From assembly GCA_050014195.1 (NCBI GenBank), contig JBEKDT010000023.1, positions 1 to 46,687 of the forward strand: a stretch of DNA of 46,687 nt. Direction: 5' to 3'. Each line of letters begins with the position of its first letter. Position 1 is the first letter of the stretch. Source of the DNA: Desulfomonilia bacterium (GTDB lineage: Bacteria; Desulfobacterota; Desulfomonilia; UBA1062). Shown here one piece after another: positions 1-26,001 of the stretch. Both the position numbers and the translations under genes were made by a program. The notes beneath the pieces are model-generated. The model was not told where the DNA came from. It searched no databases and saw only the letters and a program-made list of their open reading frames with translations.

Positions 1-1050
1 CTCGACCTGCATGACTACGGTGTCATTGGGGTGTACGCGGCGGTACTCGGCCACAAGCCCCAGGGTCCGGTCCAACAGTTCCTTGGAATAGAGCTTGCCC
101 ACAAGTCCTTCCCGTACCTTCTTTGAGATCTCGAAGACATACTGCATATGTTTATTCTTGGGATCATTGGGAACAATGATGATCCCTGACTTCTTCAGGA
201 GCTCTAAGCATTTGGCATCTTCTTCCCTCGTGACCCTGATGAGCTTGTCATGTTCCTTCTTGGCAATATCCATCATGATCTTCTGGCTTGCAGGCGATAT
301 CTTGTCCCACACGCTCTTGCTGATAATCGTAGCACCCAGAAGGTTGCCCGTGGGGTAACCCGACATGTACTTGAACCGCGAATACCACTGGAAGGCCACG
401 GCACCATAGGGGGTCGAGGTCGCGCAGTCGATCATGTTCGTGGAGAGCGATGTAGCAACATCCGCTATAGACAGGGACACGGGCGATATGCCCAGCGCGG
501 CAAACATGGCCTGTCCGATGGGTTCTCCCTCCATGGTCCACCACTTCTGCTTTCGCGCTATTTCTATCGAGAGGAGTGGCTCTTTCGAGAAGGTGTAGTA
601 AAACCCCAGGTCCATCCACCCGAGAACCTTGAAACCCTTCTCTTCAAAAAGCTTTTCCATAGTGGGCTGCAGCTTTGTTCTGACATAGCCTATCTCTTCA
701 TAGTTCCTGAAAATATAGGGGACCTCCGTAATCCTTACCTCGGGTACGATAAGCCCCAGACCGGGCCCCATGAAGCCTCCGCCATGGAGCTGTCCGAGCC
801 TGATCTTCCTGAGCATGTCTTTTTCATCCCCCTGAACACCGCCCCAATAGGTCTTGAAGGCCACTTCATTATTAGTCTTTTCCTTGATCTGTTTTCCGAT
901 CTCATCAAAGACATTGGCAATATTGCTGCCTTTGGGCGCAATCGACGCTATCTTGATGACGACCTTGGGTTCATCGGCTGCAGCGAGACAGCCTGCCGTC
1001 GATATCAAGAAGACCATGACCCAGGCAAGAACTACTCCAAACTGTTTCAT
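1..1050 (-). CDS. dctP: TRAP transporter substrate-binding protein DctP (TatP-type), 3' end runs off window
   Basis: Not in ORF track because it has no stop in the window. Manual translation from ATG 1050 (SD AAGGGGG): signal peptide MKQFGVVLAWVMVFLISTAGCLAA, then IKIASIAPKGS...YWGGVQGDEKDMLRKIRLGQLHGG, typical of DctP; 350 open codons to base 1. Confidence 0.9.
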   Translation of the reverse strand, partial: MKQFGVVLAWVMVFLISTAGCLAAADEPKVVIKIASIAPKGSNIANVFDEIGKQIKEKTNNEVAFKTYWGGVQGDEKDMLRKIRLGQLHGGGFMGPGLGLIVPEVRITEVPYIFRNYEEIGYVRTKLQPTMEKLFEEKGFKVLGWMDLGFYYTFSKEPLLSIEIARKQKWWTMEGEPIGQAMFAALGISPVSLSIADVATSLSTNMIDCATSTPYGAVAFQWYSRFKYMSGYPTGNLLGATIISKSVWDKISPASQKIMMDIAKKEHDKLIRVTREEDAKCLELLKKSGIIIVPNDPKNKHMQYVFEISKKVREGLVGKLYSKELLDRTLGLVAEYRRVHPNDTVVMQVE

Positions 1051-1080
1051 CTTTAATGCCCCCTTTGCCCATACTTATTG

Positions 1081-1953
1081 CTAGAAATACATATCAACAT
1101 TATCCAGGAGGACCTTTGCCTTCCTCTTGGCCAGCTCATTGGCAAAGGCCATGTCCGGATATTTATCAGCAGGCGTCTGGATGATCTTTTCAAGGGTCTT
1201 GACGAACAGGTCGCGGTCCTGGACCTGATAGGCATAGAACTTTGCATACAAGTAATACATGAGCAGCATCTTCCCCTGCGAGATTTCAAATGCCTTATCA
1301 AAGTGCTGTTTGGCCTTTAACGTGTTGTCGCCAAGCATCCTCGGCAGTGAGGCATAGTACGCCCCGAGCGCGGCATGGGTGCTCCCATAGTAGAATGTTT
1401 CGTCGATCTCGACTACCCGATCCAGCATGTCTATAACCTTGGGCAGATCCATCATAGCCTGCGGATCATCGGGATTCAGCCCGATCCAGGCAAGCCAGCT
1501 GTTGGCGGTCCAGAATAGTGCGGGCACATCACCGGCGCCGAAACTATAGAGCATCTGTTTGAAGGCGGGCTCGGGCCCATCAAGGGTCTTTGAGAATTGA
1601 GAATATCCTTTCAGTACCCGAAGGCCATAATCCCTTGCCTTCAGGTAGAGGAGGCCGGCCCGCTTCTTGTCCGTATCTTCCACAAAGGCATTTGCATATC
1701 CGAAGTAGGCCTCAGCCCCCCTTAAGATAAGCTTATCATCCGGGGCTGCCACAATGAAACCGTCCAGCTGGACGAGACTTGCGGGCATAGCATCCCGCAA
1801 CAAATCCACATCCGTATTCCGGTTTACCGCGGTCCTCATATCGTCCAAGATGGGATCCATAGATCTTACCGTTAAGACCTTCATGCTGCAGCCGGTAAGA
1901 AACAGTGCAAGTATAACTACCATTCTTGATCCGGACATTATCCTTGAAGCCAT
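1081..1953 (-). CDS. TRAP transporter TatT component (TPR-like lipoprotein)
   Basis: Lipobox LTGC; motifs ALFWTANSW, IDETFYYGSTH, AKQHFDKAFEIS, LANELAKRKAK-like C-terminus; directly upstream of dctP. Start chosen at ATG 1953 (SD GAGGGAGG). Confidence 0.85.
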   Translation of the reverse strand: MASRIMSGSRMVVILALFLTGCSMKVLTVRSMDPILDDMRTAVNRNTDVDLLRDAMPASLVQLDGFIVAAPDDKLILRGAEAYFGYANAFVEDTDKKRAGLLYLKARDYGLRVLKGYSQFSKTLDGPEPAFKQMLYSFGAGDVPALFWTANSWLAWIGLNPDDPQAMMDLPKVIDMLDRVVEIDETFYYGSTHAALGAYYASLPRMLGDNTLKAKQHFDKAFEISQGKMLLMYYLYAKFYAYQVQDRDLFVKTLEKIIQTPADKYPDMAFANELAKRKAKVLLDNVDMYF

Positions 1954-2011
1954 GAACCCTCCCCTCATGAAACAAACATTCATATGTTTAAGCATTGAAT
2001 GAGTATCAAAT

Positions 2012-2049
2012 GAAACAAGGTGCAGGCCTTAGCAGGACCTGCACCAAAA
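2012..2049 (-). terminator. Intrinsic terminator after serC
   Basis: Stem GGTGCAGG/CCTGCACC followed by TTGTTT on the minus strand, just past the serC stop. Confidence 0.6.
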
Positions 2050-2057
2050 GAGTTCTT

Positions 2058-3140
2058 TTACGCCTTGCTCTTCTCAAATTCCTTCATGAAGTCCGCGAGT
2101 TTCTGCGCACCTTCAAGGGGCAGGGCATTGTACATGGATACCCTTATGCCGCCTACGGCCCTGTGGCCCTTCAGGCCGATGAACCCCTTCTTCGAAGCCT
2201 GTGCAAGGAACTCGGTCTCAAGCTCCTCGTTGGGAAGCCTGAACGGGATATTCATCTTGGAACGCGACCCCTTCTCCACATTGCCTTTATAGAAGGTGCC
2301 CTTGTCGATGACGTCGTAGATCAGCCCAGCCTTTTTATTATTGATCTTTTCGATCTCCGTTACTCCGCCCATGCCCTCAAGCCACTTCAAGACTTCATGC
2401 ACCACGAAGATGGCGGTGACGGGGCAGGTGTTGTAGCAGGAGTTGTTTTCCACATGCGGCTTGTAGTTCAGCATGGAAGGCGTGTTCTCGGGCGCCTTGC
2501 CGACGAGGTCTTCCCGGATGATGACGCAGGTGACGCCTGCAGGGCCCATATTCTTCTGAGCGCCTGCATAGATGAGCCCGAATTTCGACACATCGACCTT
2601 CCTGGAGAGGATGTCGGAAGACATATCGGCCACGAGCGGCACATCACCCGTATTGGGGAATGTCTGCCACTGGGTGCCGTAGATGGTGTTGTTGGAGGTG
2701 ACGTGGCAGTAGGCCGCATCCTTGGTGAGCTTGATCTCGTCTGCGTTGGGCAGCCTTGTGTAGCTTATGTCCTTGGTGGATGCGGCGATGTTCACCTTGC
2801 CGAGGAGCTTGGCCTCCTTGATGGCCCGGGTGGCGAAATACCCCGTGTCTATGTAATCGGCAACCTTGCCGGCAGAAAGCAGGTTGATGGGGATCATGGC
2901 AAACTGCAGGCTCGCGCCTCCTTGCAGGAAGAGGATCTTGTAGTTGTCCGGGATCTGCATGGCCTTCTTGAGAAGATCCACCGTCTCGATGAGCAGTGCA
3001 TCGAACTGTTTCGATCGGTGAGATACTTCCATAATGGACATGCCTGTTCCGGCAAAATTCAAGACCGCCTTGCTCGTGCTTTCGAGTACGGGTTCCGGCA
3101 GAACCGAAGGCCCTGGGTTGAATATGAATACATTCCTCAT
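2058..3140 (-). CDS. serC: Phosphoserine aminotransferase
   Basis: FNPGPSVLP, EVSHRS, GGASLQF, DMSSD, YAGAQKNMGPAG (PLP lysine), GHRAVGGIRVSMYNA. Confidence 0.97.
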   Translation of the reverse strand: MRNVFIFNPGPSVLPEPVLESTSKAVLNFAGTGMSIMEVSHRSKQFDALLIETVDLLKKAMQIPDNYKILFLQGGASLQFAMIPINLLSAGKVADYIDTGYFATRAIKEAKLLGKVNIAASTKDISYTRLPNADEIKLTKDAAYCHVTSNNTIYGTQWQTFPNTGDVPLVADMSSDILSRKVDVSKFGLIYAGAQKNMGPAGVTCVIIREDLVGKAPENTPSMLNYKPHVENNSCYNTCPVTAIFVVHEVLKWLEGMGGVTEIEKINNKKAGLIYDVIDKGTFYKGNVEKGSRSKMNIPFRLPNEELETEFLAQASKKGFIGLKGHRAVGGIRVSMYNALPLEGAQKLADFMKEFEKSKA

Positions 3141-3399
3141 ACCGGAAAATCCTCCTTACCGTGATTAATAGAACATTGTATATACCAGCGAGTGGCACTC
3201 TTCGTAAAGGCATTTGTTCTATGCTGAGGAGGCCCTTTAGGCGTTTTACCTACGTACCTTAGAGCCTTTTGCGCACATGACATTCGGCCCTGTGCCGATT
3301 TTTTTCATAACTTGACCGTCCGTATAGATATAAGAGGAAACTTTAGAGAGGATACCCATGAACCATATACAAATTAAGAAGGATTCCCCTGGGCGCTCA

Positions 3400-3445
3400 T
3401 TGACAGCTATTCTGATCCAAGGTATATAAATGAATGCCCATTCAT
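3400..3445 (+). promoter_or_regulatory. Sigma70 promoter plus palindromic operator candidate for the acyl-CoA dehydrogenase
   Basis: TTGACA(3400)-17 nt-TATATA(3423), followed directly by ATGAAT-gccc-ATTCAT (3430-3445). Confidence 0.55.
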
Positions 3446-3527
3446 CTTGAAGAAAACTGCCGTCACGAGTACTGACGAGAATGGAAGGAAGCCTTAAAAG
3501 CGAGATACACACATGAGGAGGAGCCAT

Positions 3528-4676
3528 ATGGAATTTTCACTGAGTGAAGAACACAAGATGGTACAGGACATGGCAAGGAGATTCTCCGATCAGGAGCTGA
3601 AGCCCATAGCAGCCCAGATCGACCAAACCCACAAACACAATGACGCAGTGCTTAAGAAGATGGCGGAGAACGGGTTTATGGGCGTGGCCATCCCGAGTGA
3701 GTACGGCGGAGCAGGCATGGACTACATGGCCTACGCACTCATCCTCACCGAGATATCCAGGGGATGTGCCAGCACCGGCGTTATCATGTCGGTGAATAAT
3801 TCCCTCTACGGCTTCCCTGTTTACACCTTCGGTACCGAGGAGCAGCGCAAGAAGTTCAACACCCCTGTCGCCTCAGGGGCGGCACACGGGTGTTACGGGC
3901 TCACCGAGGCCAACGCCGGGAGCGACCCGGCGGGTATGAAGACGAGCGCCGTGCCGGACGGCAACCATTGGATCATCAACGGCGAGAAGAAATTCATCAC
4001 CAACGGCAACATCGCCAAGTATGCCGTCATCGCTGCAGTTACGGACAAGACCAAGGGATATAAGGGCATCACCCAGTTCGTCATCGACCTCGAGGCGACC
4101 GAGGGTTTCTCCGTAGGCAAGGTGGAGGATAAGCTGGGCATCAGAGGCTCCGGCACTTCAGAGCTCGTATTCCAGGACGCCCGCATCCCCAAGGATGCCA
4201 TACTGGGCGATCCGGGGTCAGGTTTCCGGCAGATGCTCACCACGCTCGATTCGGGCCGTATCGGCATTGCATCCCAGGCCTTGGGCATCGCCAAGTGCTG
4301 CCTTGAAGAATCAATCAAATACTCCAAGGAGCGCGTGCAGTTCGGCAAGCCCATCTCCGAGTTCCAGGCCATCCAGTTCAAGATGGCCGACATGGCGACC
4401 CGCATTGATGCCGCCGAGCTGCTGATCCTGCGGGCTGCATACCTCGAGAGCAACCATATGCACTTCGAGAAGGAGGCGGCCATGGCCAAGATGTACGCCT
4501 CCGACGTTGCCATGTGGGCGACGGTCGAGGGGGTACAGATCCTCGGCGGATACGGCTATGTGTCCGAGTACCCCATGGAGCGCCTCATGCGCGATGCCAA
4601 GATCACCCAGATCTACGAAGGCACCAATGAGATCATGCGGGTGGTTGTCGCCAGGAACATCCTAGGCAAGAGGTAG
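3528..4676 (+). CDS. Acyl-CoA dehydrogenase (butyryl-CoA/short-chain type)
   Basis: LTEANAGSD, NGEKKFITN, KLGIRGS, RVQFGKPI, ILGGYGY, IYEGTNEI; SD GAGGAGG before ATG 3528. Confidence 0.95.
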   Translation: MEFSLSEEHKMVQDMARRFSDQELKPIAAQIDQTHKHNDAVLKKMAENGFMGVAIPSEYGGAGMDYMAYALILTEISRGCASTGVIMSVNNSLYGFPVYTFGTEEQRKKFNTPVASGAAHGCYGLTEANAGSDPAGMKTSAVPDGNHWIINGEKKFITNGNIAKYAVIAAVTDKTKGYKGITQFVIDLEATEGFSVGKVEDKLGIRGSGTSELVFQDARIPKDAILGDPGSGFRQMLTTLDSGRIGIASQALGIAKCCLEESIKYSKERVQFGKPISEFQAIQFKMADMATRIDAAELLILRAAYLESNHMHFEKEAAMAKMYASDVAMWATVEGVQILGGYGYVSEYPMERLMRDAKITQIYEGTNEIMRVVVARNILGKR

Positions 4677-4684
4677 AAATAACA

Positions 4685-4713
4685 AAGGGGGGCATGCACG
4701 TCATGCCCCCCTT
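4685..4713 (+). terminator. Hairpin terminator
   Basis: AAGGGGGGCATG-cacgt-CATGCCCCCCTT directly after the ACAD stop. Confidence 0.65.
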
Positions 4714-4726
4714 CTGCTGATCTCCA

Positions 4727-4862
4727 TCGCGGCTAAAGCCGCTCCTACAACATGCAAAATATTATCGAGATGTAGGAGCGCCTTCAGGCGCGACCCATTT
4801 TGGATGTCGCGGCTAAAGCCGCTCCTACAGAATGAAGGGCGGGCACAAGGCCCGCCCCTACA
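4727..4862. repeat. Cluster of four GTAG-family REP palindromes
   Basis: Units at 4727-4749 (-), 4771-4793 (+), 4805-4829 (-), 4836-4862 (-). Variants GTAGGAGCGGCTTTAGCCGCGA, GTAGGAGCGCCTTCAGGCGCGA and GTAGGGGCGGGCCTTGTGCCCGCCC. Confidence 0.85.
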
Positions 4863-4916
4863 AACCTTTTCTATTTCTCTGTTCACCGATCCCTGTCCGC
4901 CGGGATACCTGTTTCA

Positions 4917-4944
4917 GATCACTGTTCACTGGTCACTGATCATT
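4917..4944. repeat. Heptamer tandem repeat (G[A/T/G]TCACT, 4 units)
   Basis: gatcact gttcact ggtcact gatcatt, immediately past the polA stop. Confidence 0.5.
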
Positions 4945-4945
4945 C

Positions 4946-7612
4946 CTAGTGCGCCTCCTCCCAGCTTTTGCCGACGCCGATGTCAACATGCACCGGTACC
5001 AGCAGGGGGTAGGCATGTTGCATCTCGTGCCTGACCATGGCCTTAAGTGCTTCCAATTCATCATCCGCCGCCTCGAATACCAGCTCGTCGTGCACCTGGA
5101 GTATCATCCTGCTCTTCATATCCTTCATATGCTCATGGATCTTCACCATGGCGAGCTTGATGAAATCCGCCGCACTGCCCTGGATGGGGGTGTTGATGGC
5201 GATCCTCCTCGCACCCTCCCGCACGTTGAAGTTATCCGATTTGATCTCGGGGATGCTCCTGCGCCTGCCCATGATGGTCGTTACGAAGCCGTCCTTCTCG
5301 GCAGAGCGGGCAATGCCCTCCATGTACTCCTTCACGCCCGGGTACTTGGCGAGGTAGTTTTCGATGTAGCGTTTCGCCACATCGCGCTTGATACCGAGTT
5401 GCCCTGAGAGCTTGTGGGGGCCCATGCCGTAGATGATGCCGAAGTTGATGGTCTTTGCCTGCCTGCGATGGTTCTCGGTGACCTCATCAAAGGGGAGGCC
5501 GAAGACCTCGGCGGCAGTGCGGGTGTGTATGTCAAAACCCTGTTCAAAGGACTCGATGAGGGTCTTGTCCTTGGTAATATGTGCGAGGATTCTCAGCTCG
5601 ATCTGAGAATAGTCGGCACTCAAGATCGTAAACCCTTTGGGCGCTATGAAGGCGGAGCGTATGCGCCTGCCCATATCGGAGCGTATGGGGATATTCTGGA
5701 GATTGGGCTCGGAAGACGAGATCCTGCCCGTTGCCGTAACGGCCTGGTTGAACCGCGTATGGACTCGCCCGGTCTTGGAGTCGATCATGGCGGGCAGGCT
5801 GTCCACATAGGTGTTCTTGAGCTTGGTAAACATGCGCCAGTTCAGGATTATGGCCGGCAGCTCGTGCCTGACTGCAAGCTCTTCGAGTACGGCGCTGTCC
5901 GTTGAAAAGCCTGTCTTGGTCTTCTTCACCATGGGGAACTTGAGATCTACAAAGAGTATCTCGCCGAGCTGCTTGGGCGAATTGATATTGAAGGTCCTGC
6001 CTGCAAAGGTGTAGATACGCTCCTCCATACCCTTCATCTGTACCTCGATCTCCTTGGAGATCTCGCGGAGCAGGTCCGGATCAACAAGAACACCTATGGC
6101 CTCCATGGCGGCCAGCACGTCCAGCAGCGGAGTTTCGATCTCATAGAAAAGCCTGTCCACGCCGAGGTCGGTCATGCGTCCTGAGAGGACATCCTTGAGC
6201 GACACGAGGCATTGAGCGTGGCTTGCAAGATGCTGCGCTATCTCGTCGGGTTCGAGATCATAGAGTTTCCTGGCATTCCTGCCGGAACCCATAAGATCTT
6301 TGGTGCGGTGAATGTCTCTATCAAGGTAGGACCCGGCAAGGTCTTCCAGGGTGGTTTCGCCTGTGGCGGCGTCACAGCAGTAGGCTGAAAGCATGGTATC
6401 GAAAATCTCAGTTCCAACGTCAAGGCCCCTGAGTCTGGCCTCAACAAGGGCCTCCTTGGCATTGTGCATGGCAAGTCTCACATGGCGATTCTTCAACGGA
6501 TCGAGACAGGCATCCCTCTCCATGCAGACATAGGCGGTATCGCCCTGGGCCAGTGCCGAACAGGCCCCTTCCATCACGTACATCCCTGCTTCACCTGATA
6601 GAGCAGGATTGCAGATATGTTCGATCCTGCCCTCAAAGGCCGGTCTTGGCTTTGGTGTGTCTCCCTCAAGCTCGGCCTTAAGGGCCCTGAATTCGAGCTC
6701 CTTGAAGAGGCGGGAGAGGTTCTCTGCATCGATGCCCTTCATGCGGATGTTGCTATAGTCGATGTCAATGCCTGCATCCCGGTCGAGCCGTGCGAGATCG
6801 AGGCTTAAGAGGGCCTTGTCCGTATGGTTCAGTATGGCCTCCCTGGCCTTCTTGCTCTCGATCGTTGCAGCATGCTCGATTATCTCCTGGACATGCCCCA
6901 TCTTAGAGATGAGCTCCAACGCACCCTTCTCACCTATGCCGGGCACGCCGGGGATATTGTCCGAGCTGTCACCCATGATGGCCAGAAGGTCGGCCATATA
7001 TTCCGGGTAAACCCCGTACTTTTCTTTCACGGCCTGACGGTCATAGAGCTTCTCCTTGAGGGTGTCCCATACCGATACATCATCATCCACGAGCTGCATG
7101 AGATCCTTGTCACCGGAAATGATAATGACCTGTGAGTCCTTCTTGAACCTCCGTGCAGCCTCTGCAATGATATCGTCCGCCTCCTGCCCCTCTTTTCTCA
7201 ACATCGGGATGCCGAAGGCCTCGACGATCTTTAAGATATACGGTATCTGGACCTGGAGGGCCTCGGGCATGACCTGCCGCGTGGCCTTGTATGCGTCATA
7301 CTTGCGGTGCCGCTCCGTGGGGCCCCTGGAGTCGAGCACAAAGCACAGGTATTCGGGTTTTTTATCCTTGATGAGCTTCATGAGCATCCTGGCAAGTATG
7401 TAGATGGCGTTCGTAGGCATGCCCTTGGAGGTGGAGAGGTTCCGCATGGCATAGAATGCCCGGTAGATGTACGAGCTGCCGTCAATGAGGAAGACCTCTT
7501 TCCTGTCTATCTTTTCTTGTTTATCCGTCATCTGAATTCCCGCCAGTTTACCCCTCACCCTGACCCACAATTCGGCAGGATAGCCGAATTGTGGGTCAGG
7601 GTGAGGGGTCAT
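4946..7612 (-). CDS. polA: DNA polymerase I (start at 7612 or 7531)
   Basis: 5'-3' exonuclease [36 protein letters not shown]; polymerase motifs [41 protein letters not shown]. Confidence 0.97.
7550..7609. repeat. Perfect inverted repeat, 27-bp arms, 6-nt loop
   Basis: ACCCCTCACCCTGACCCACAATTCGGC-aggata-GCCGAATTGTGGGTCAGGGTGAGGGGT. Confidence 0.95.
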
Positions 7613-20507: not shown

Positions 20508-20936
20508 ATGTCAGATACCTCCATAAACCTTGAACAGCTGAAGAAATACTTTTCAAAAGACGCCTTTGCAGAGCTCTGCGGTATCGAGATCTGTGATGCA
20601 GGGCCTGGATATGCGAAGACCAGGCTTTTGGTAGACAAGAGACATCTCAACGGCATCAATGTGGCCCATGGAGGTATCGTGTTCACCCTGGCCGATATGG
20701 CATTTGCAGCCGCGGCACACACGAGAGGCATGTCTGCAGTGGCAATAAACACCACCATCTCCTTTATAAAGGCCGGCAAGACCTCTGCACTCTATGCAGA
20801 GGCCCGGGAGGTATCCAGAAACAGGAGGCTCGCCACCTATACGGTGAAGGTGACAGATGGTTCGGGTGAGGTTATTGCACTCTTCCAAGGAACGGCATAC
20901 ATAAGGGCAGAGTCGATTCACAAAGACATCGCCTGA
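20508..20936 (+). CDS. PaaI family hotdog thioesterase
   Basis: DAFAELCGI, HLNGINVAHGGIVFTLADMAFA. Confidence 0.9.
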   Translation: MSDTSINLEQLKKYFSKDAFAELCGIEICDAGPGYAKTRLLVDKRHLNGINVAHGGIVFTLADMAFAAAAHTRGMSAVAINTTISFIKAGKTSALYAEAREVSRNRRLATYTVKVTDGSGEVIALFQGTAYIRAESIHKDIA

Positions 20937-20960
20937 TTCTCATTTTACCCTGGGACATCA

Positions 20961-20998
20961 TAGAAGATCCGTCAGCTTTGTAGCTGACGGATCTTCTA
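20961..20998. terminator. Bidirectional hairpin between convergent operons
   Basis: TAGAAGATCCGTCAGCT-ttgt-AGCTGACGGATCTTCTA, perfect 17-bp arms. Confidence 0.75.
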
Positions 20999-21047
20999 AA
21001 ATTTTTATGGTATGGTAATGAAGAGAGAATTTCCTTCTCAATTCTTA

Positions 21048-21284
21048 CTATCCGGCAGGGAAGAGATTCTTAAGCTCCTTACGAATCGTCTTTAAGACAT
21101 CCTGCTTCTCCCGGTTACTCTTCTCGATCTTCTCGATTCTCTGGACAAGCTCCTCCACCTTCTCATCGAGCGTATGTAATCGGGAGATAATTTTTTCGAG
21201 TTCCGCTACAATATCAATATCGGAAGAGATGCCTTCCATCAGCCCCAGCAGGTCTTTGACCTTCTTGGATGTATCAGGATCCAT
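21048..21284 (-). CDS. Small coiled-coil protein, 78 aa
   Basis: ATG 21284 with SD GAGGTG, overlapping the end of the upstream gene; heptad pattern LHTLDEKVEELVQRIEKIEK. Confidence 0.65.
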   Translation of the reverse strand: MDPDTSKKVKDLLGLMEGISSDIDIVAELEKIISRLHTLDEKVEELVQRIEKIEKSNREKQDVLKTIRKELKNLFPAG

Positions 21285-22041
21285 ACACCTCACGCTTGGC
21301 CTTGAGATGGATATGCGACAGGGATGAATACACCCTGTCGAGTGCAGTCTTGAGTTCGGCGATCTCATCTTCCAGCGGTTTTCTCTTTTGGTATTCTTCA
21401 TCGAGCTTGGTTTCCAGCTCATGAATCCTTGCCGTGCTGATACTCAGGTCCTTCTCGAGGATGGAAACCTTGACATCAAGCTTTGCCTTATTCTGGATGT
21501 CCTTAGAGAAGCGTACGAGCTTCTCCTCAAGGGTCTTGCTTCTTATAATTTCCGTATCGAAACCGATTGCCTTCTCATCGAGCATGCCCACTACATGTTG
21601 GATATAGTGGTCTGCATCTTCGAGCTGCTCGTTCAGGAACAGGATTTCGCGCTCCAGGAGCTTGTGCTCCCTTGCCGCCTTTTCAAGCTCGGCAAGATTC
21701 ACCTTGAGATTCGAGTTCTCCCGCCCAATCTCTTCGATGACCCGGTCGTGCTCCTTGAGCTTCCGGGCTACGTCCTTCTTCTCAAAAAGGATCTGGGAAA
21801 CCTCAGTATTCAGGTCCTCGATGGTCTCCACAGCCTTGGCAATGGCGGCATGGGCACCATCCTTTGCTATGATGGGGGATATGACCGATTCTCTAACCGC
21901 CGCCGGAGCCGGTGTGGCCTGCTCTTTAATCTCTTCCTGCGGTTTTATAAGTACGGGGTCGACATTCCAGGGCCTGTTGGGCCTGCGCTTCTGCATCTTG
22001 GGCATCCGCTCAGCAACACTTTTATCAAAACCGTCTTTCAT
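21274..22041 (-). CDS. PomX-like coiled-coil protein (putative ParA activator)
   Basis: SD GAGGAG; basic N-terminal peptide MKDGFDKSVAERMPKMQKRR, a Pro/Ala linker, then a long coiled coil; directly downstream of the PomZ-like gene. Confidence 0.65.
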   Translation of the reverse strand: MKDGFDKSVAERMPKMQKRRPNRPWNVDPVLIKPQEEIKEQATPAPAAVRESVISPIIAKDGAHAAIAKAVETIEDLNTEVSQILFEKKDVARKLKEHDRVIEEIGRENSNLKVNLAELEKAAREHKLLEREILFLNEQLEDADHYIQHVVGMLDEKAIGFDTEIIRSKTLEEKLVRFSKDIQNKAKLDVKVSILEKDLSISTARIHELETKLDEEYQKRKPLEDEIAELKTALDRVYSSLSHIHLKAKREVYGS

Positions 22042-22133
22042 AGATAACAACTCCTCATTTCAACAGATAGGCATCATGAAAGATCCAATACCTTTTAGGT
22101 TGAATCCGAGCACTACGTTAACCACAAAACCGA

Positions 22134-23093
22134 CTAAAAGACAATCGGGAGATTAGGAAAAACCTCCCGAATAAAATCATTAAGATCTGTTGAGCCCCGG
22201 TTTTTGGGCGCATACTGTGTAATTGGCACCCCTACGCTCGCCGCTTCGGCGATTTTTATATCCTGGCGGATAAGAGTCTTCATAAGATAGCCGTTGTAAT
22301 GCGTCTCCAGAGCCTCCTTTGCCCGCTGACAGATATTGTGTGATGCATTATAGTTGTTCAGAAAGATGTAGATATTATCAAAGATAAACTCAAAATCTTC
22401 CTCAATGGTCGAGAGCGTCTCGAAGAGGATCTTAAGCCCATGGTAGGACAGAAAGTCCGCTAATACCGGGACAAAAAGATCGTTGCAGGCAAGGATGCCG
22501 TTGAGGTTCAGCAGGCCGATGGAGGGAGAGGCATCCATGACGATCACGTCATAGTCATCCTGGATTGCAATAATGCTCTTTTTCAGGCGCTGCTCACGGG
22601 CATTCATGGAGGTAAGCGCCAATTCTACGGGAGAGAGATCAAGGTTTGCAGGAATGAGCTTCAGGTTTTTCATATTCGTATCCAGAATGATGTCTTGGAT
22701 ATGAGTCTTTTCGATGAGAACATTATAGAGGGTATTCTCAAATGAATCGTGATCTATCCCGAGGCACTGGGTGAGATGACCTTGGGGATCGAGGTCCATG
22801 AGAAGCACCTGCATGCCGAGCTGGGCCAGCCTGAAGGCATAGAATGACGATACACTCGTCTTCCCGGTTCCGCCCTTGAAGTTGAGGAAGATCTGCCTCC
22901 TCTTTGATGTAACCAGTGGGGGCTTGCCAAGGATCTTGAGATACATGGGAATGTCGTGGGGATAATAGGTGCGCACCCCGTCTATGATCTGGGGTTTGGG
23001 AAGCTTTCCATCCGTCTCCATCTTCAGCAGGGTTGATTTTGTAATCCCAAGCAATGTTGCAAATTCTTTGGCTGTGTATACGGGTTGTTCCAT
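22134..23093 (-). CDS. pomZ: ParA/MinD ATPase with N-terminal HTH, PomZ-like
   Basis: Deviant Walker A NFKGGTGKTS, DLDPQG; segments RRQIFLNFKGG and NDLFVPVLADFLSYHGLKILFET match Myxococcus PomZ as I recall it. The ParA family call is secure; orthology is from memory. Confidence 0.8.
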   Translation of the reverse strand: MEQPVYTAKEFATLLGITKSTLLKMETDGKLPKPQIIDGVRTYYPHDIPMYLKILGKPPLVTSKRRQIFLNFKGGTGKTSVSSFYAFRLAQLGMQVLLMDLDPQGHLTQCLGIDHDSFENTLYNVLIEKTHIQDIILDTNMKNLKLIPANLDLSPVELALTSMNAREQRLKKSIIAIQDDYDVIVMDASPSIGLLNLNGILACNDLFVPVLADFLSYHGLKILFETLSTIEEDFEFIFDNIYIFLNNYNASHNICQRAKEALETHYNGYLMKTLIRQDIKIAEAASVGVPITQYAPKNRGSTDLNDFIREVFPNLPIVF

Positions 23094-23750
23094 TTATGAC
23101 CGCTCCATCATAATCTCCCACCACCCCTGCCATTTGGCGATAATCCATTCGAATTCCTCGGGTGAAGCACTAAGAGGCTCTCCAAAATCCTCACCTGTGA
23201 TCCTTTTAAGGGTCTGCACAGCCTGCATTCTCACTTCATGAGATGGATCTTCCAGGGCCTTGATTACCTGTTCCACATCATCCGGCGATCCCCAAATAGC
23301 CATGAGCCTCAGACAGTCTTTCCTCACTGATTCATCAGGGTCTTGGGTACAGAGCCTTGCCACCGAGCCAAGGGAGCTTTTGTCATTCAACCAGAAGAGA
23401 TAGCTGATAACCCTCCTGCGAACATAAGCGTCGGAGTCTTCAAGCCACTTGATACCATCTTCGGGTCGAAATGCTCCCTTACGGAACAGATAGCGTATGG
23501 CCCTGGCCCTCACCCGTGGATCTTCATCCCGGGTAGCTGCCCTGAAGATATCCGAGAAATCGGCGTCGGCGTCAAAGAGGATGTCATACACGACACCGGC
23601 TGTCGGTTTGTCCGCATCTTTCAGAACAGATGAAAAGACCTGAGCAGGGTCAGGGGTTTCTTTGAGGATAGCCTTTGCAGCCATCTTCTTGATTTCAGGT
23701 TCTGCATCATGCAGGTCTCGCAGAATCTGGTTCAATACAACGCCCTTCAA
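23094..23750 (-). CDS. HEAT-repeat protein (candidate minimal PomY)
   Basis: TTG start with SD GGAGG; repeats DEDPRVRARAI, DSDAYVRRRVI, DPDESVRKDCL, DPSHEVRMQAV; C-terminal LKRITGEDFG...WQGWW; its stop abuts the ParA ATG. Confidence 0.8.
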   Translation of the reverse strand: MKGVVLNQILRDLHDAEPEIKKMAAKAILKETPDPAQVFSSVLKDADKPTAGVVYDILFDADADFSDIFRAATRDEDPRVRARAIRYLFRKGAFRPEDGIKWLEDSDAYVRRRVISYLFWLNDKSSLGSVARLCTQDPDESVRKDCLRLMAIWGSPDDVEQVIKALEDPSHEVRMQAVQTLKRITGEDFGEPLSASPEEFEWIIAKWQGWWEIMMERS

Positions 23751-23859
23751 CGAAACCTCCTCTCCCTACGTATGAATATAAATGGGAAGGGCACAATCAG
23801 TCAAGCTTATCAAAGAAAAGGATTTTAACTCCTTGTGCCTCCATGATAGCTTATCCTCC

Positions 23860-26001
23860 ATGGGAGCTCTTATAGCCGATGTGGTCATTCTTTCAAACAT
23901 CCCAAAGGTGCTCTCTTATTCAATACCTAACGATGTGTCTCCAAAGGTGGGATTGAGGGTCGCAGCGCCTGTCAGGAAATCGACAAGGGTCGGCGTCATT
24001 ATCGGCATCAGGGAAAGCTCGGAGTCTGATGAGGGGCTTAAGGATCTCGCATGCGCCCTTGATGAGATCCCCTTTATAGCACCCGAGCTGATCGAGCTCA
24101 TCTCTTGGACATCAAAGTACTACCATGCAGGCATCGGCCCCTGCATGGCCCTTGCCTTTCCCCCATACCTCAGGCAGTGTCGCACGATTATACTTGATGA
24201 AGATCCGGTCATATTCAGGACCGACAGGGAAAATGACCGACTCGGCCCTCATCAGAAATCAATACTCGATGCCATTCCCAATACGGGCATCCGGATGAGC
24301 ACCCTCAAAGACCTCTTACCGGGGATCACCCAGAAGATAAAGGCTTTGGCCAAGCGCGGTTTTATAGAGCTCAAAGAAGTACCATGCAGCTCCGCCCCTT
24401 CCTGTTCTGCGACACCGGAATATACCCCGGACCAGCACAAGGCAATCAGTGAGATCACGCAAGCCATCAAGGCCGGGAGATTTCACGCCTATGTCCTCCA
24501 TGGGATTACGGGATCAGGCAAGACAGAGGTGTACCTTGCGACTGCAATGGAAGCCATCAAGCTTGGGAAGTCCGTGCTCTACCTCGTCCCTGAAATAGCC
24601 CTGACCCCGCAGACCATTGACATGGTTAAAAGCAGGATACCCCTTAAGGTGGCCGTGTTCCATTCGGGCCTCTCTCCAAAGGATCGTGCCAGGGAATTCA
24701 TGAAGGTGGCACGTGAAGGCGTGAAATTCGTCCTGGGCACCCGCTCCGCTATCTTTTCACCATTAAGGGAGATCGGCCTTATCGTGGTGGACGAGGAACA
24801 TGACAGTAGCTACAAGCAGGAAGACGGCGTTCCCTACAACGCCCGGGACCTGAGCCTCTTGCGGGCAAAGAATAACTCTGCAGTGGTGATCCTGGGCTCC
24901 GCCACCCCGAGTATGGAGACCTATGATAGGACAAGGTTGCCCCATTCGAGTCTCATCACCATGACAAGCCGGATCGGCCCTGCAAAGTTGCCGGAAGTTG
25001 AGATCGTGGACATGAGGGGGATACAAGGGCCGCTGTCGGACAGACTCATCAGGGAGATGATCGATACCATTTCCAAGGGCGAGCAAGTGCTTCTCTTCAT
25101 CAACCGGCGGGGTTTCTCGGCCGCCCTTGTGTGCCCGGGGTGCGGCAAGGTCCTTAAGTGCAGCCGCTGCGACAGGAGCCTCACCTACCATAAGGCTAAG
25201 GGAAAGGCCTTATGCCACTGGTGCGGCTTTACCATGAATCTGCCCGAGATCTGTCCCTCCTGCGGTTGCCTTGACATGAAACCCATCGGCATGGGAACGG
25301 AACAGGTCATCCAGGCAGTTCAGAAGGTCTCCCCGGGCAAGCGTGTCCTTCAGATAGATTCCGATGAAATGACAACGGTAAAGAAATTGACAGCAGCACT
25401 GGATGCCATCAGGGCTGGAAGCGTTGACATCATCGTAGGCACCCAGATGATCGCCAAGGGTCATGACTTTCCCCTTCTCACCCTTGTGGGGGTGGTGTAC
25501 GCCGAGCAGCTTCTGTATATGCCCGACTTCAGGAGCGGCGAGCGGACCTTCCAGCAGATCGTCCAGGTGGCCGGACGCGCGGGAAGGCGCAAGTCAGACA
25601 CCAAGGTGATCATCCAGACATATGTCCCGGATCATCCTCTTATACAGTCGATTTGTGGGTATGACTATCAAGCAATGATGGAAATTGAAAGAGGCATAAG
25701 AAAGGCTACCTCCTTCCCACCCTACTCGCATATGGCCCGGTGCGTGGTCAGTTCAAAAAAAGACAAGACCGCACGGGAATTTTCCTTTCAGCTTGCATTA
25801 TCGGTTAATATCCCCGGGGTAGAGGCCCTCGGTCCTGCACCGGCGCCCATTGCGCTCCTGCGAGACCATTTCCGGTGGCATTTCATCCTTCGGTCAAAGA
25901 ATAGAGGTGCTCTTCATAAGGCCATTGATATTATAGAGCGGATGCACCAACCGCAAGAAACAGACCTCAAGATCGACGTTGATCCTTATTCGATGATGTA
26001 G
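23860..26001 (+). CDS. priA: Primosomal protein N'
   Basis: HGITGSGKTEVY, VPEIALTPQ, DEEHD, LGSATPS, four CxxC pairs, GTQMIAKGHDFP, QVAGRAGR, IDVDP. Confidence 0.96.
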   Translation: MGALIADVVILSNIPKVLSYSIPNDVSPKVGLRVAAPVRKSTRVGVIIGIRESSESDEGLKDLACALDEIPFIAPELIELISWTSKYYHAGIGPCMALAFPPYLRQCRTIILDEDPVIFRTDRENDRLGPHQKSILDAIPNTGIRMSTLKDLLPGITQKIKALAKRGFIELKEVPCSSAPSCSATPEYTPDQHKAISEITQAIKAGRFHAYVLHGITGSGKTEVYLATAMEAIKLGKSVLYLVPEIALTPQTIDMVKSRIPLKVAVFHSGLSPKDRAREFMKVAREGVKFVLGTRSAIFSPLREIGLIVVDEEHDSSYKQEDGVPYNARDLSLLRAKNNSAVVILGSATPSMETYDRTRLPHSSLITMTSRIGPAKLPEVEIVDMRGIQGPLSDRLIREMIDTISKGEQVLLFINRRGFSAALVCPGCGKVLKCSRCDRSLTYHKAKGKALCHWCGFTMNLPEICPSCGCLDMKPIGMGTEQVIQAVQKVSPGKRVLQIDSDEMTTVKKLTAALDAIRAGSVDIIVGTQMIAKGHDFPLLTLVGVVYAEQLLYMPDFRSGERTFQQIVQVAGRAGRRKSDTKVIIQTYVPDHPLIQSICGYDYQAMMEIERGIRKATSFPPYSHMARCVVSSKKDKTAREFSFQLALSVNIPGVEALGPAPAPIALLRDHFRWHFILRSKNRGALHKAIDIIERMHQPQETDLKIDVDPYSMM

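Follow-up and report, generated by a model that had tools for sequence, protein, structure and literature searches.

A four-gene operon in a Desulfomonilia genome

The window analysed here is the whole stretch of 46,687 nucleotides (nt) of contig JBEKDT010000023.1 from the Desulfomonilia bacterium assembly GCA_050014195.1, and our subject is an operon at positions 21048-23750 whose sequence suggests that it is probably a compact Pom-type positioning system related to PomXYZ of Myxococcus xanthus. Mapping of open reading frames (ORFs) revealed four co-directional minus-strand genes, encoding in order of transcription a HEAT-repeat protein, a ParA-type ATPase with a helix-turn-helix (HTH)-like N-terminus, a long coiled-coil protein and a small coiled-coil protein:

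23094..23750, minus strand: HEAT-repeat protein in the pomY position, 218 amino acids (aa); Pfam HEAT_2, E 6.5e-23
22134..23093, minus strand: PomZ-family ParA/MinD ATPase, 319 aa; Pfam AAA_31, E 6.4e-45
21274..22041, minus strand: PomX-like protein, 255 aa; N-terminal motif, hhalign and AlphaFold2 model
21048..21284, minus strand: small coiled-coil protein, 78 aa; sequence and homologues in the same position

An earlier note on this DNA, made from the letters alone, had described a four-gene minus-strand operon without parB. Its coordinates were confirmed; no parB lies in the operon, and the three ParB genes of the genome are on other contigs, each adjoining another ParA paralogue. The ATPase gene begins 1 base past the stop codon of the HEAT gene and is separated by 92 nt from the coiled-coil gene, whose longest ORF runs 22050..21274; three codons inside it, the ATG at 22041 serves as the conserved start and gives 255 aa. 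For the last gene, the first-ATG ORF (21422..21048, 124 aa) would overlap the coiled-coil gene by 149 nt, whereas an internal ATG at 21284 that follows a GAGG gives a protein of 78 aa with an 11-nt overlap with the upstream stop. We preferred the shorter form because it is the one conserved in relatives and because GAGG precedes its ATG; the small coiled-coil gene proposed earlier is thus present, but not at the listed length of 124 aa.

Assignment of the ATPase to the PomZ family

Pairwise alignment of the ATPase with M. xanthus PomZ extended over the full length of both proteins, each of 319 aa, with 45% identity (E 7e-103), and the stretches that the earlier note had given as common to PomZ recur letter for letter in this alignment. 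Searches in the two directions gave reciprocal best matches: with the operon ATPase as query against the M. xanthus genome, PomZ came first at 290.9 bits (runner-up 126.9), and with M. xanthus PomZ as query against the host genome, the operon ATPase came first at 290.4 bits (runner-up 132.7). Among 1.84 billion representatives, the best match was P0121 (46% identity), which is nearest to Atlas clusters that carry the automatic name 'Cell division protein PomZ' and are commonest in Myxococcota. Reference PomZ loci were fetched through P0121 and comprised that of M. xanthus strain AM003 (L059) and 79 others (L031-L110). In L059, pomY (863-3037), pomZ (3078-4037, 319 aa) and pomX (4043-5257, 404 aa) lie on one strand, which confirms the gene order pomY-pomZ-pomX given in the earlier note.

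In a phylogenetic tree, the operon ATPase formed a group with 7 ATPases of related operons and 5 representatives, and this group was sister to a PomZ clade made up of Myxococcota, Gemmatimonadota and metagenome-assembled genomes (MAGs). The joint clade of operon and PomZ proteins held 38 rows, with a support of 94 in the Shimodaira-Hasegawa-like approximate likelihood ratio test (SH-aLRT), and lay inside a 42-row clade supported at 95. Of the 8 ParA/MinD paralogues of the host genome that were in the tree, 7 fell outside the 50-row clade that contains PomZ, and the ATPase L030 of another genome (G179), with 34% identity, fell inside that clade and outside the PomZ/operon group. The operon ATPase is therefore sister to, and not nested in, the clade that holds the characterised PomZ, and because the two clades are sisters the tree does not decide whether the system is ancestral. 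This tree of 99 rows was computed in the quick mode of IQ-TREE under LG+G4, with SH-aLRT as the sole support measure. Its sample consisted of the best matches of the query, with named type Ia ParAs left out; also left out were L100 (an ORF in the wrong frame), the host paralogue L005 (no ORF with a Walker A motif was picked), representatives of less than 240 or more than 620 aa, and three-quarters of the representatives from P0165 onward.

Models of other ParA families fitted the protein less well. The best NCBIfam model was that of plasmid RepA (TIGR03453, residues 6-217), which gave 115.6 bits against a cut-off of 348.45, and the SopA model gave 61.9 bits against a cut-off of 725. The closest solved ATPase cores were those of Soj/ParA, and the type Ia ParA structure 3ez9 aligned from profile position 5. 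Reciprocal best matches, the tree and the sub-threshold RepA score agree with the earlier proposal that the ATPase groups with PomZ rather than with Soj or plasmid ParA, and judged by its sequence we firmly assign the 319-aa protein to the PomZ family of ParA/MinD ATPases, away from Soj-type ParAs.

Some entries in these searches were unusual. P0125, P0128 and P0133, which belong to the clade of the operon ATPase, are fusions of the ATPase with a long coiled-coil N-terminal extension rich in Lys (414-584 aa), as though a single protein combined scaffold and ATPase. Loci with pomZ and pomX of the PomZ clade appear in a 'Comamonas sp.' record (L060) and a 'Fredinandcohnia sp.' MAG (L035), the Comamonas copy being Myxococcus-like, and a partial copy of the operon ATPase with 99% identity is labelled Methanotrichaceae archaeon (P0014). 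The Comamonas, Fredinandcohnia and Methanotrichaceae labels probably belong to mislabelled or mis-binned contigs.

Motifs and predicted partner pockets of the ATPase

The catalytic motifs of the ATPase are intact. It has the deviant Walker A sequence KGGTGKT at residues 73-79 and keeps K73, K78 and K280, that is, the Walker A lysines and the counterpart of the DNA-binding Lys268 of PomZ. Residues of PomZ that contact the PomX peptide (NPEP), the alpha5 segment of PomY and DNA (Lys268) have been proposed from AF3 models in section 13 of bioRxiv 2025.12.01.691545. When we mapped these residues through our alignment A4, the predicted NPEP pocket, which like the others comes from the preprint's models and not from a solved complex, proved identical at 6 of 13 positions, conservative at 5 and changed at 2 (E256G and E275V), and the predicted alpha5 pocket identical at 6 of 8 positions and conservative at 2. 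Three ParA paralogues of the host differ at most of the PomZ pocket positions.

Approximately the first 60 residues of the ATPase form an HTH region resembling those of MerR and type Ia ParA, with sub-threshold Pfam matches to MerR/HTH_17 over residues 5-46. This N-terminus is fuller than that of Myxococcus PomZ, being 12 residues longer in the pairwise alignment. In columns 26-100 of alignment A4, part of the HTH-like N-terminus is missing from PomZ proteins of Myxococcaceae and Archangiaceae; the Desulfobacterota proteins and the deeper relatives P0127, P0129 and P0130 have all of it, which gives the PomZ N-terminus the look of a reduced HTH.

A complex of the ATPase dimer, ATP/Mg and residues 1-45 of the coiled-coil protein was also modelled. 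The three runs scored 0.46, 0.49 and 0.00 (median 0.46; best of 3 controls 0.00), with a contact agreement between runs of at least 0%, a partner predicted local distance difference test (pLDDT) value of at least 27 and a tool verdict of weak support. In the calibration of the tool, 58 of 80 solved complexes and 2 of 110 mismatches attained its mark, but those that did so at a score of 0.60 or less were just 7 of the 80 solved complexes and both of the passing mismatches; these counts are rough guides here, where our own alignments and small molecules were used. We did not count the model as evidence.

A PomX-like protein encoded downstream of the ATPase

The 255-aa coiled-coil protein consists of an N-terminal motif resembling an activating peptide (residues 1-15), a PWNVDP motif (24-29), a disordered linker and a coiled-coil helix. 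AlphaFold2 predicted a helix at residues 5-11, a pLDDT below 50 for residues 16-61 and a single helix at residues 62-253 with a pLDDT above 90. An N-terminal peptide, a disordered linker and then a coiled coil make up the architecture that PMC10307791 describes for PomX, and the model predicts that the 255-aa protein has it.

The motif, MK.GF[DE]..V....PK, is invariant in its core across 13 proteins of the family. A broader pattern, [GAS]F[DE]..[VIL][APS]...P[KRT], which was written after the sequences had been seen, matched a single time in each of 13 of 13 Desulfobacterota and 72 of 80 PomZ loci, where it opens the gene that follows the ATPase. Across the 8.43 million residues of the six-frame translation of the host genome there were 2 real matches, one of which is the 255-aa gene. 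The PomX start given in the earlier note agrees with the peptide printed in PMC7993993 and with the pomX translation of L059, whose product starts with exactly the 22 residues printed there.

Comparison of whole profiles with hhalign, using the coiled-coil family (n=13) and the proteins at the PomX position of the reference loci (n=15), gave a match with a probability of 89.8% and a score of 51.6 (E 1.8e-6), which spans 161 co-linear columns of the coiled coil. Reversed profiles scored 32.6 and 29.7, and the maximum of 20 block shuffles was 28.8. Of the partner similarity that the earlier note had expected, the half concerning PomX thus found support in a profile match above its controls and in the shared motif, but the half concerning PomY did not go beyond a generic HEAT match (see below). 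Searches of Pfam and NCBIfam and inspection of the AlphaFold2 model detected no DNA-binding domain in the protein. We regard the identification of the 255-aa protein as a PomX-like partner as well supported.

A HEAT protein in the position of PomY

AlphaFold2 modelled the 218-aa protein with a pLDDT of 92.3 as six HEAT repeats (12 helices) spanning residues 3-185, followed by a Trp-rich C-terminal helix at residues 197-217. Residues 3-195 aligned end to end with the PomY HEAT domain in hhalign (13-member alignment; 98.7%, E 2.7e-16), and a fold search with the model returned generic HEAT and alphaRep/PP2A-A matches only. In 11 of 12 related loci a HEAT gene lies directly upstream of the ATPase gene, the twelfth having no flanking sequence. 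In M. xanthus PomY, the N-terminal coiled coil, alpha5 and the globular domain serve condensate formation, FtsZ recruitment and ATPase activation, according to PMC10307791 and bioRxiv 2025.12.01.691545, and all PomZ-clade lineages that we aligned retain the PomY N-terminal coiled coil. From these comparisons, the HEAT protein appears PomY-like in part, in its position and in one domain only.

The small coiled-coil protein

Homologues of the 78-aa gene occupy the same position elsewhere in the genus, at 86% identity, and in a second genus of the family, at 36% identity over 75 aa (E 1e-10). Searches of the more distant operons turned up none, and the gene is confined to the family designated f1. 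A split PomY, in which the 78-aa protein supplies the PomY coiled coil, was considered and rejected at the sequence level, since hhalign gave 0.9% against 0.6% for the reversed control. As a separate observation, positions 21017-21119 of the window have a 103-nt inverted copy, 94% identical, on another contig of the host genome (C17:17301-17403), which covers the last 23 codons of the 78-aa gene and the sequence just downstream.

Host genome and distribution of the operon

The host genome comprises 4.2 Mb in 29 contigs and was scored as 100% complete. A copy of the ATPase with 97% identity is named Desulfomonilia bacterium at NCBI, and relatives at 60-76% are named Thermodesulfobacteriota, the phylum of which Desulfomonilia is a class. 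The host, a bacterium of the sulfate-reducer type, is a member of the Desulfomonilia and not a myxobacterium; from the letters, the earlier note had called the genome non-myxobacterial-looking. It has one FtsZ. No MinC was found in the genome and no MinD scored over the cut-off (best 110.9 against 212.9 bits), which is the outcome of the Min check that the note had suggested. At two other sites of the host genome (C9:177429-182008 and C2:252551-253872) a HEAT_2 protein adjoins a MinD-like ATPase; at the second of these a TGA lies within the ATPase match.

In a sample of 301 genomes from across the phylum, an ATPase match at E <= 1e-50 occurred in 15, of which the host is one. By family, these were 3 of 3 genomes in f1, 8 of 9 in f13, 1 of 1 in f5, 1 of 1 in f9 and 1 of 6 in f2; the f2 match is a 34%-identical protein that the tree placed outside the PomZ/operon group. 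The core of HEAT, ATPase and coiled-coil genes is kept in four families, with ATPase identities of 58-92%. None of the operon carriers had a MinD over the cut-off.

The operons of family f13 (L113-L117, also L020-L027) have a longer layout, with a ribbon-helix-helix (RHH) gene of approximately 79 aa followed by genes for the HEAT protein, the ATPase, a 110-aa protein and a 271-aa coiled-coil protein. Their HEAT protein has a conserved N-terminal DRFRLxYLKS peptide, and in the 110-aa protein the activating-peptide-like motif recurs, together with a PWDV motif and a short coiled coil.

Section 5 of bioRxiv 2025.12.01.691545 states that PomXYZ is conserved in Myxobacteria, and a 2024 paper (PMC11271474) states that Gemmatimonadota seem to lack PomZ. 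The literature searched, to which distribution tables in supplements did not belong, held no report of Pom outside Myxococcota and places PomXYZ in myxobacteria, so that a carrier in the Desulfomonilia lies beyond the described range, as the earlier note had proposed. PomZ-clade ATPases also occur in Gemmatimonadota MAGs (L037, L038, L039, L042, L046, L055, L105 and others); at most of these loci the next gene starts with a PomX-type peptide, and a gene for a coiled-coil and HEAT protein lies upstream.

Surroundings of the operon

The operon is neighboured by priA, rmuC, an rRNA/tRNA methyltransferase-like gene and a thioesterase-like gene, and a second genome of the same genus holds it at the same chromosomal place. 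Inspection of the neighbouring genes found no candidate cargo gene in or beside the operon. Within positions 20800-24200 there was no centromere-like or iteron-like repeat array, just short two-copy chance matches. Two candidate regulatory features lie at its borders:

20961..20998, no strand assigned: perfect 17-bp hairpin, likely a bidirectional terminator; inverted repeat I1, 100% complementary
23775..23804, minus strand: sigma-70-like promoter match, 10/12; consensus match upstream of the HEAT gene

The hairpin sits between the end of the operon and the convergent thioesterase-like gene. The promoter-like site lies within the divergent region common to the HEAT gene and priA, and the consensus scan gave 4 sites there where shuffled sequence averaged 3.7, which is the chance level.

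Interpretation and alternatives

The mechanism of the proposed Pom-type system can be inferred from homology as a cluster that rides on the nucleoid and is driven by peptide-stimulated ATP hydrolysis. ATP-bound dimers of the ATPase would coat the nucleoid, and the coiled-coil protein would self-assemble into a cluster whose N-terminal peptides would dock onto the dimeric ATPase, triggering hydrolysis of ATP. These peptide-ATPase contacts would keep the cluster tethered to the nucleoid and shift it towards mid-nucleoid, with the HEAT protein and, in family f1, the 78-aa coiled-coil protein riding on the scaffold as cargo adaptors. Because the genome has FtsZ but no detected MinC or MinD, the most likely target would be the FtsZ ring, as in Myxococcus; this is the least certain step of the proposal. 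PomXYZ of M. xanthus places and stimulates the FtsZ ring at mid-cell, acting from one cluster bound to the nucleoid.

Several observations weigh against a Pom-type system. The hidden Markov model of the coiled-coil family misses pomX in three Myxococcota genomes, its best match (E 0.036) lying elsewhere, and pairwise BLAST of the coiled-coil protein against PomX returned coiled-coil noise only. K13 and R15 of PomX are essential basic residues in M. xanthus, as reported in PMC7993993; the counterpart of K13 is Met, and of the two just R15 has a basic counterpart (Lys 15), although by sequence the 255-aa protein has a further basic residue at position 12, and the pocket changes E256G and E275V may go together with the K13M change in the peptide. 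The match of the HEAT protein is generic: in searches with the HEAT profile, PomY was the third-best protein in 2 Myxococcota genomes and weak in a third, and since PomY is not the best match the homology cannot be called specific. Alignments and profiles also revealed no PomY N-terminal coiled coil, alpha5-bearing intrinsically disordered region or gD globular domain in the HEAT protein. Finally, the missing Min system does not discriminate, since a MinD over the cut-off occurs in just 23 of the 301 sampled genomes and its absence from carriers accordingly says little.

We also advance, tentatively, a more specific version of the Pom reading, as a conjecture that is doubtful as a whole. It holds that the operon encodes a minimal Pom machine that works without the condensate-forming coiled coil or alpha5 of PomY, that one scaffold gives both activating contacts, that E256G/E275V and K13M co-evolved, and that the HTH is ancestral to the PomZ family and came from a type Ia-like ParA. 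In such a machine the alpha5 pocket could be filled by the PWNVDP motif or by the Trp-rich C-terminal helix of the HEAT protein.

Alternatively, the same machinery might position a cargo other than the divisome, with the HEAT and small coiled-coil proteins as adaptors for that cargo. PomY's segments linked with recruiting FtsZ and forming condensates are absent, accessory genes vary by family (the 78-aa coiled coil in f1; the RHH gene and the 110-aa peptide-bearing protein in f13), and ParA/MinD systems position many cargos, as PMC11407121 describes; moreover, most of the phylum lacks both Min and the operon, which is therefore not needed to replace Min. Against these points stand the lack of a candidate cargo gene in or beside the operon and the fact that all characterised members of the ATPase clade work in placing FtsZ, and on balance we consider another cargo unlikely, though it carries real weight. 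An autoregulated partition module of the type Ia kind, in which the HTH-ParA binds a specific site and the coiled coil replaces ParB, would account for the HTH-like N-terminus, whose alignment to RepA and P7/P1 ParA begins at their HTH, and for the RHH gene that opens the f13 operons, a fold shared by some centromere-binding proteins. Such a module is hard to reconcile with a RepA score of 115.6 bits (cut-off 348) against 291 bits for PomZ, a chromosomal locus among housekeeping genes whose place is kept in a second genome of the genus, the lack of a centromere-like repeat array at 20800-24200, three ParA-ParB pairs already present in the genome and a coiled-coil protein in which no DNA-binding domain was detected, and we judge it improbable. 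The notion that unrelated neighbours resemble Pom by chance draws on the commonness of HEAT repeats and coiled coils, which produce spurious matches; already disfavoured, it is hardly tenable beside a gene order kept across four families at 58-92% ATPase identity, genes that abut or overlap, and an N-terminal motif that holds its gene position in 13 of 13 and 72 of 80 loci.

Taken as a Pom-type system, the operon extends the range of PomXYZ to a clear relative in anaerobic Desulfomonilia, with related forms in three further families of the phylum, and offers a simpler version to study. It resembles a natural deletion experiment, in which the PomY parts for phase separation, FtsZ recruitment and ATPase activation are gone and the predicted ATPase pockets are kept; because the HEAT protein lacks those parts while the ATPase retains the pockets, the core of Pom becomes testable with small, soluble proteins. 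Judged from sequence, it may also be a candidate system for division placement in a phylum where 278 of 301 sampled genomes have no MinD over the cut-off.

Comparison with known systems

The closest characterised counterpart is PomX/PomY/PomZ of M. xanthus (MXAN_0636/0634/0635), with which the operon shares the succession of HEAT protein, ATPase and peptide-bearing coiled coil on one strand, an ATPase of 319 aa that keeps the predicted pockets and the DNA-binding lysine, a partner whose N-terminus reads MK.[GA]F[DE]..V....P[KR] and continues into a disordered linker and a coiled coil, and a host without a Min system. The partners differ in size, PomY having 682 aa against 218 for the HEAT protein, and PomX 404 aa against 255 for the coiled-coil protein, in which the linker is shorter and Met replaces the essential K13. 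The Desulfomonilia host, the extra 78-aa coiled-coil gene and the fuller HTH of the ATPase are further differences. PomZ-clade loci of Myxococcota, Gemmatimonadota and unclassified MAGs likewise have a peptide-motif gene after the ATPase and a HEAT protein before it, but they keep the N-terminal coiled coil of PomY, and their ATPases belong to the PomZ clade proper. In the f13 operons, the ATPase is 58-60% identical, the HEAT gene lies upstream and a downstream coiled-coil gene has the same N-terminal motif, whereas the RHH gene, the HEAT N-terminal peptide and the second peptide-bearing protein are added and the 78-aa gene is absent.

Type Ia plasmid ParAs (P1/P7 ParA, SopA and RepA of repABC) share an N-terminal HTH-like region before a deviant Walker A ATPase; unlike them, the operon ATPase scores far under the cut-offs of their models, has no ParB or centromere repeats beside it and possesses a core nearer to Soj-type structures. 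A short basic N-terminal peptide grafted on an interaction domain is described in PMC7993993 as a principle of ParA/MinD activators. The ParB N-terminus, MinE and McdB have such a short peptide with basic residues in common with the coiled-coil protein, which bears no sequence relation to them and differs in the long coiled coil that stands behind its peptide.

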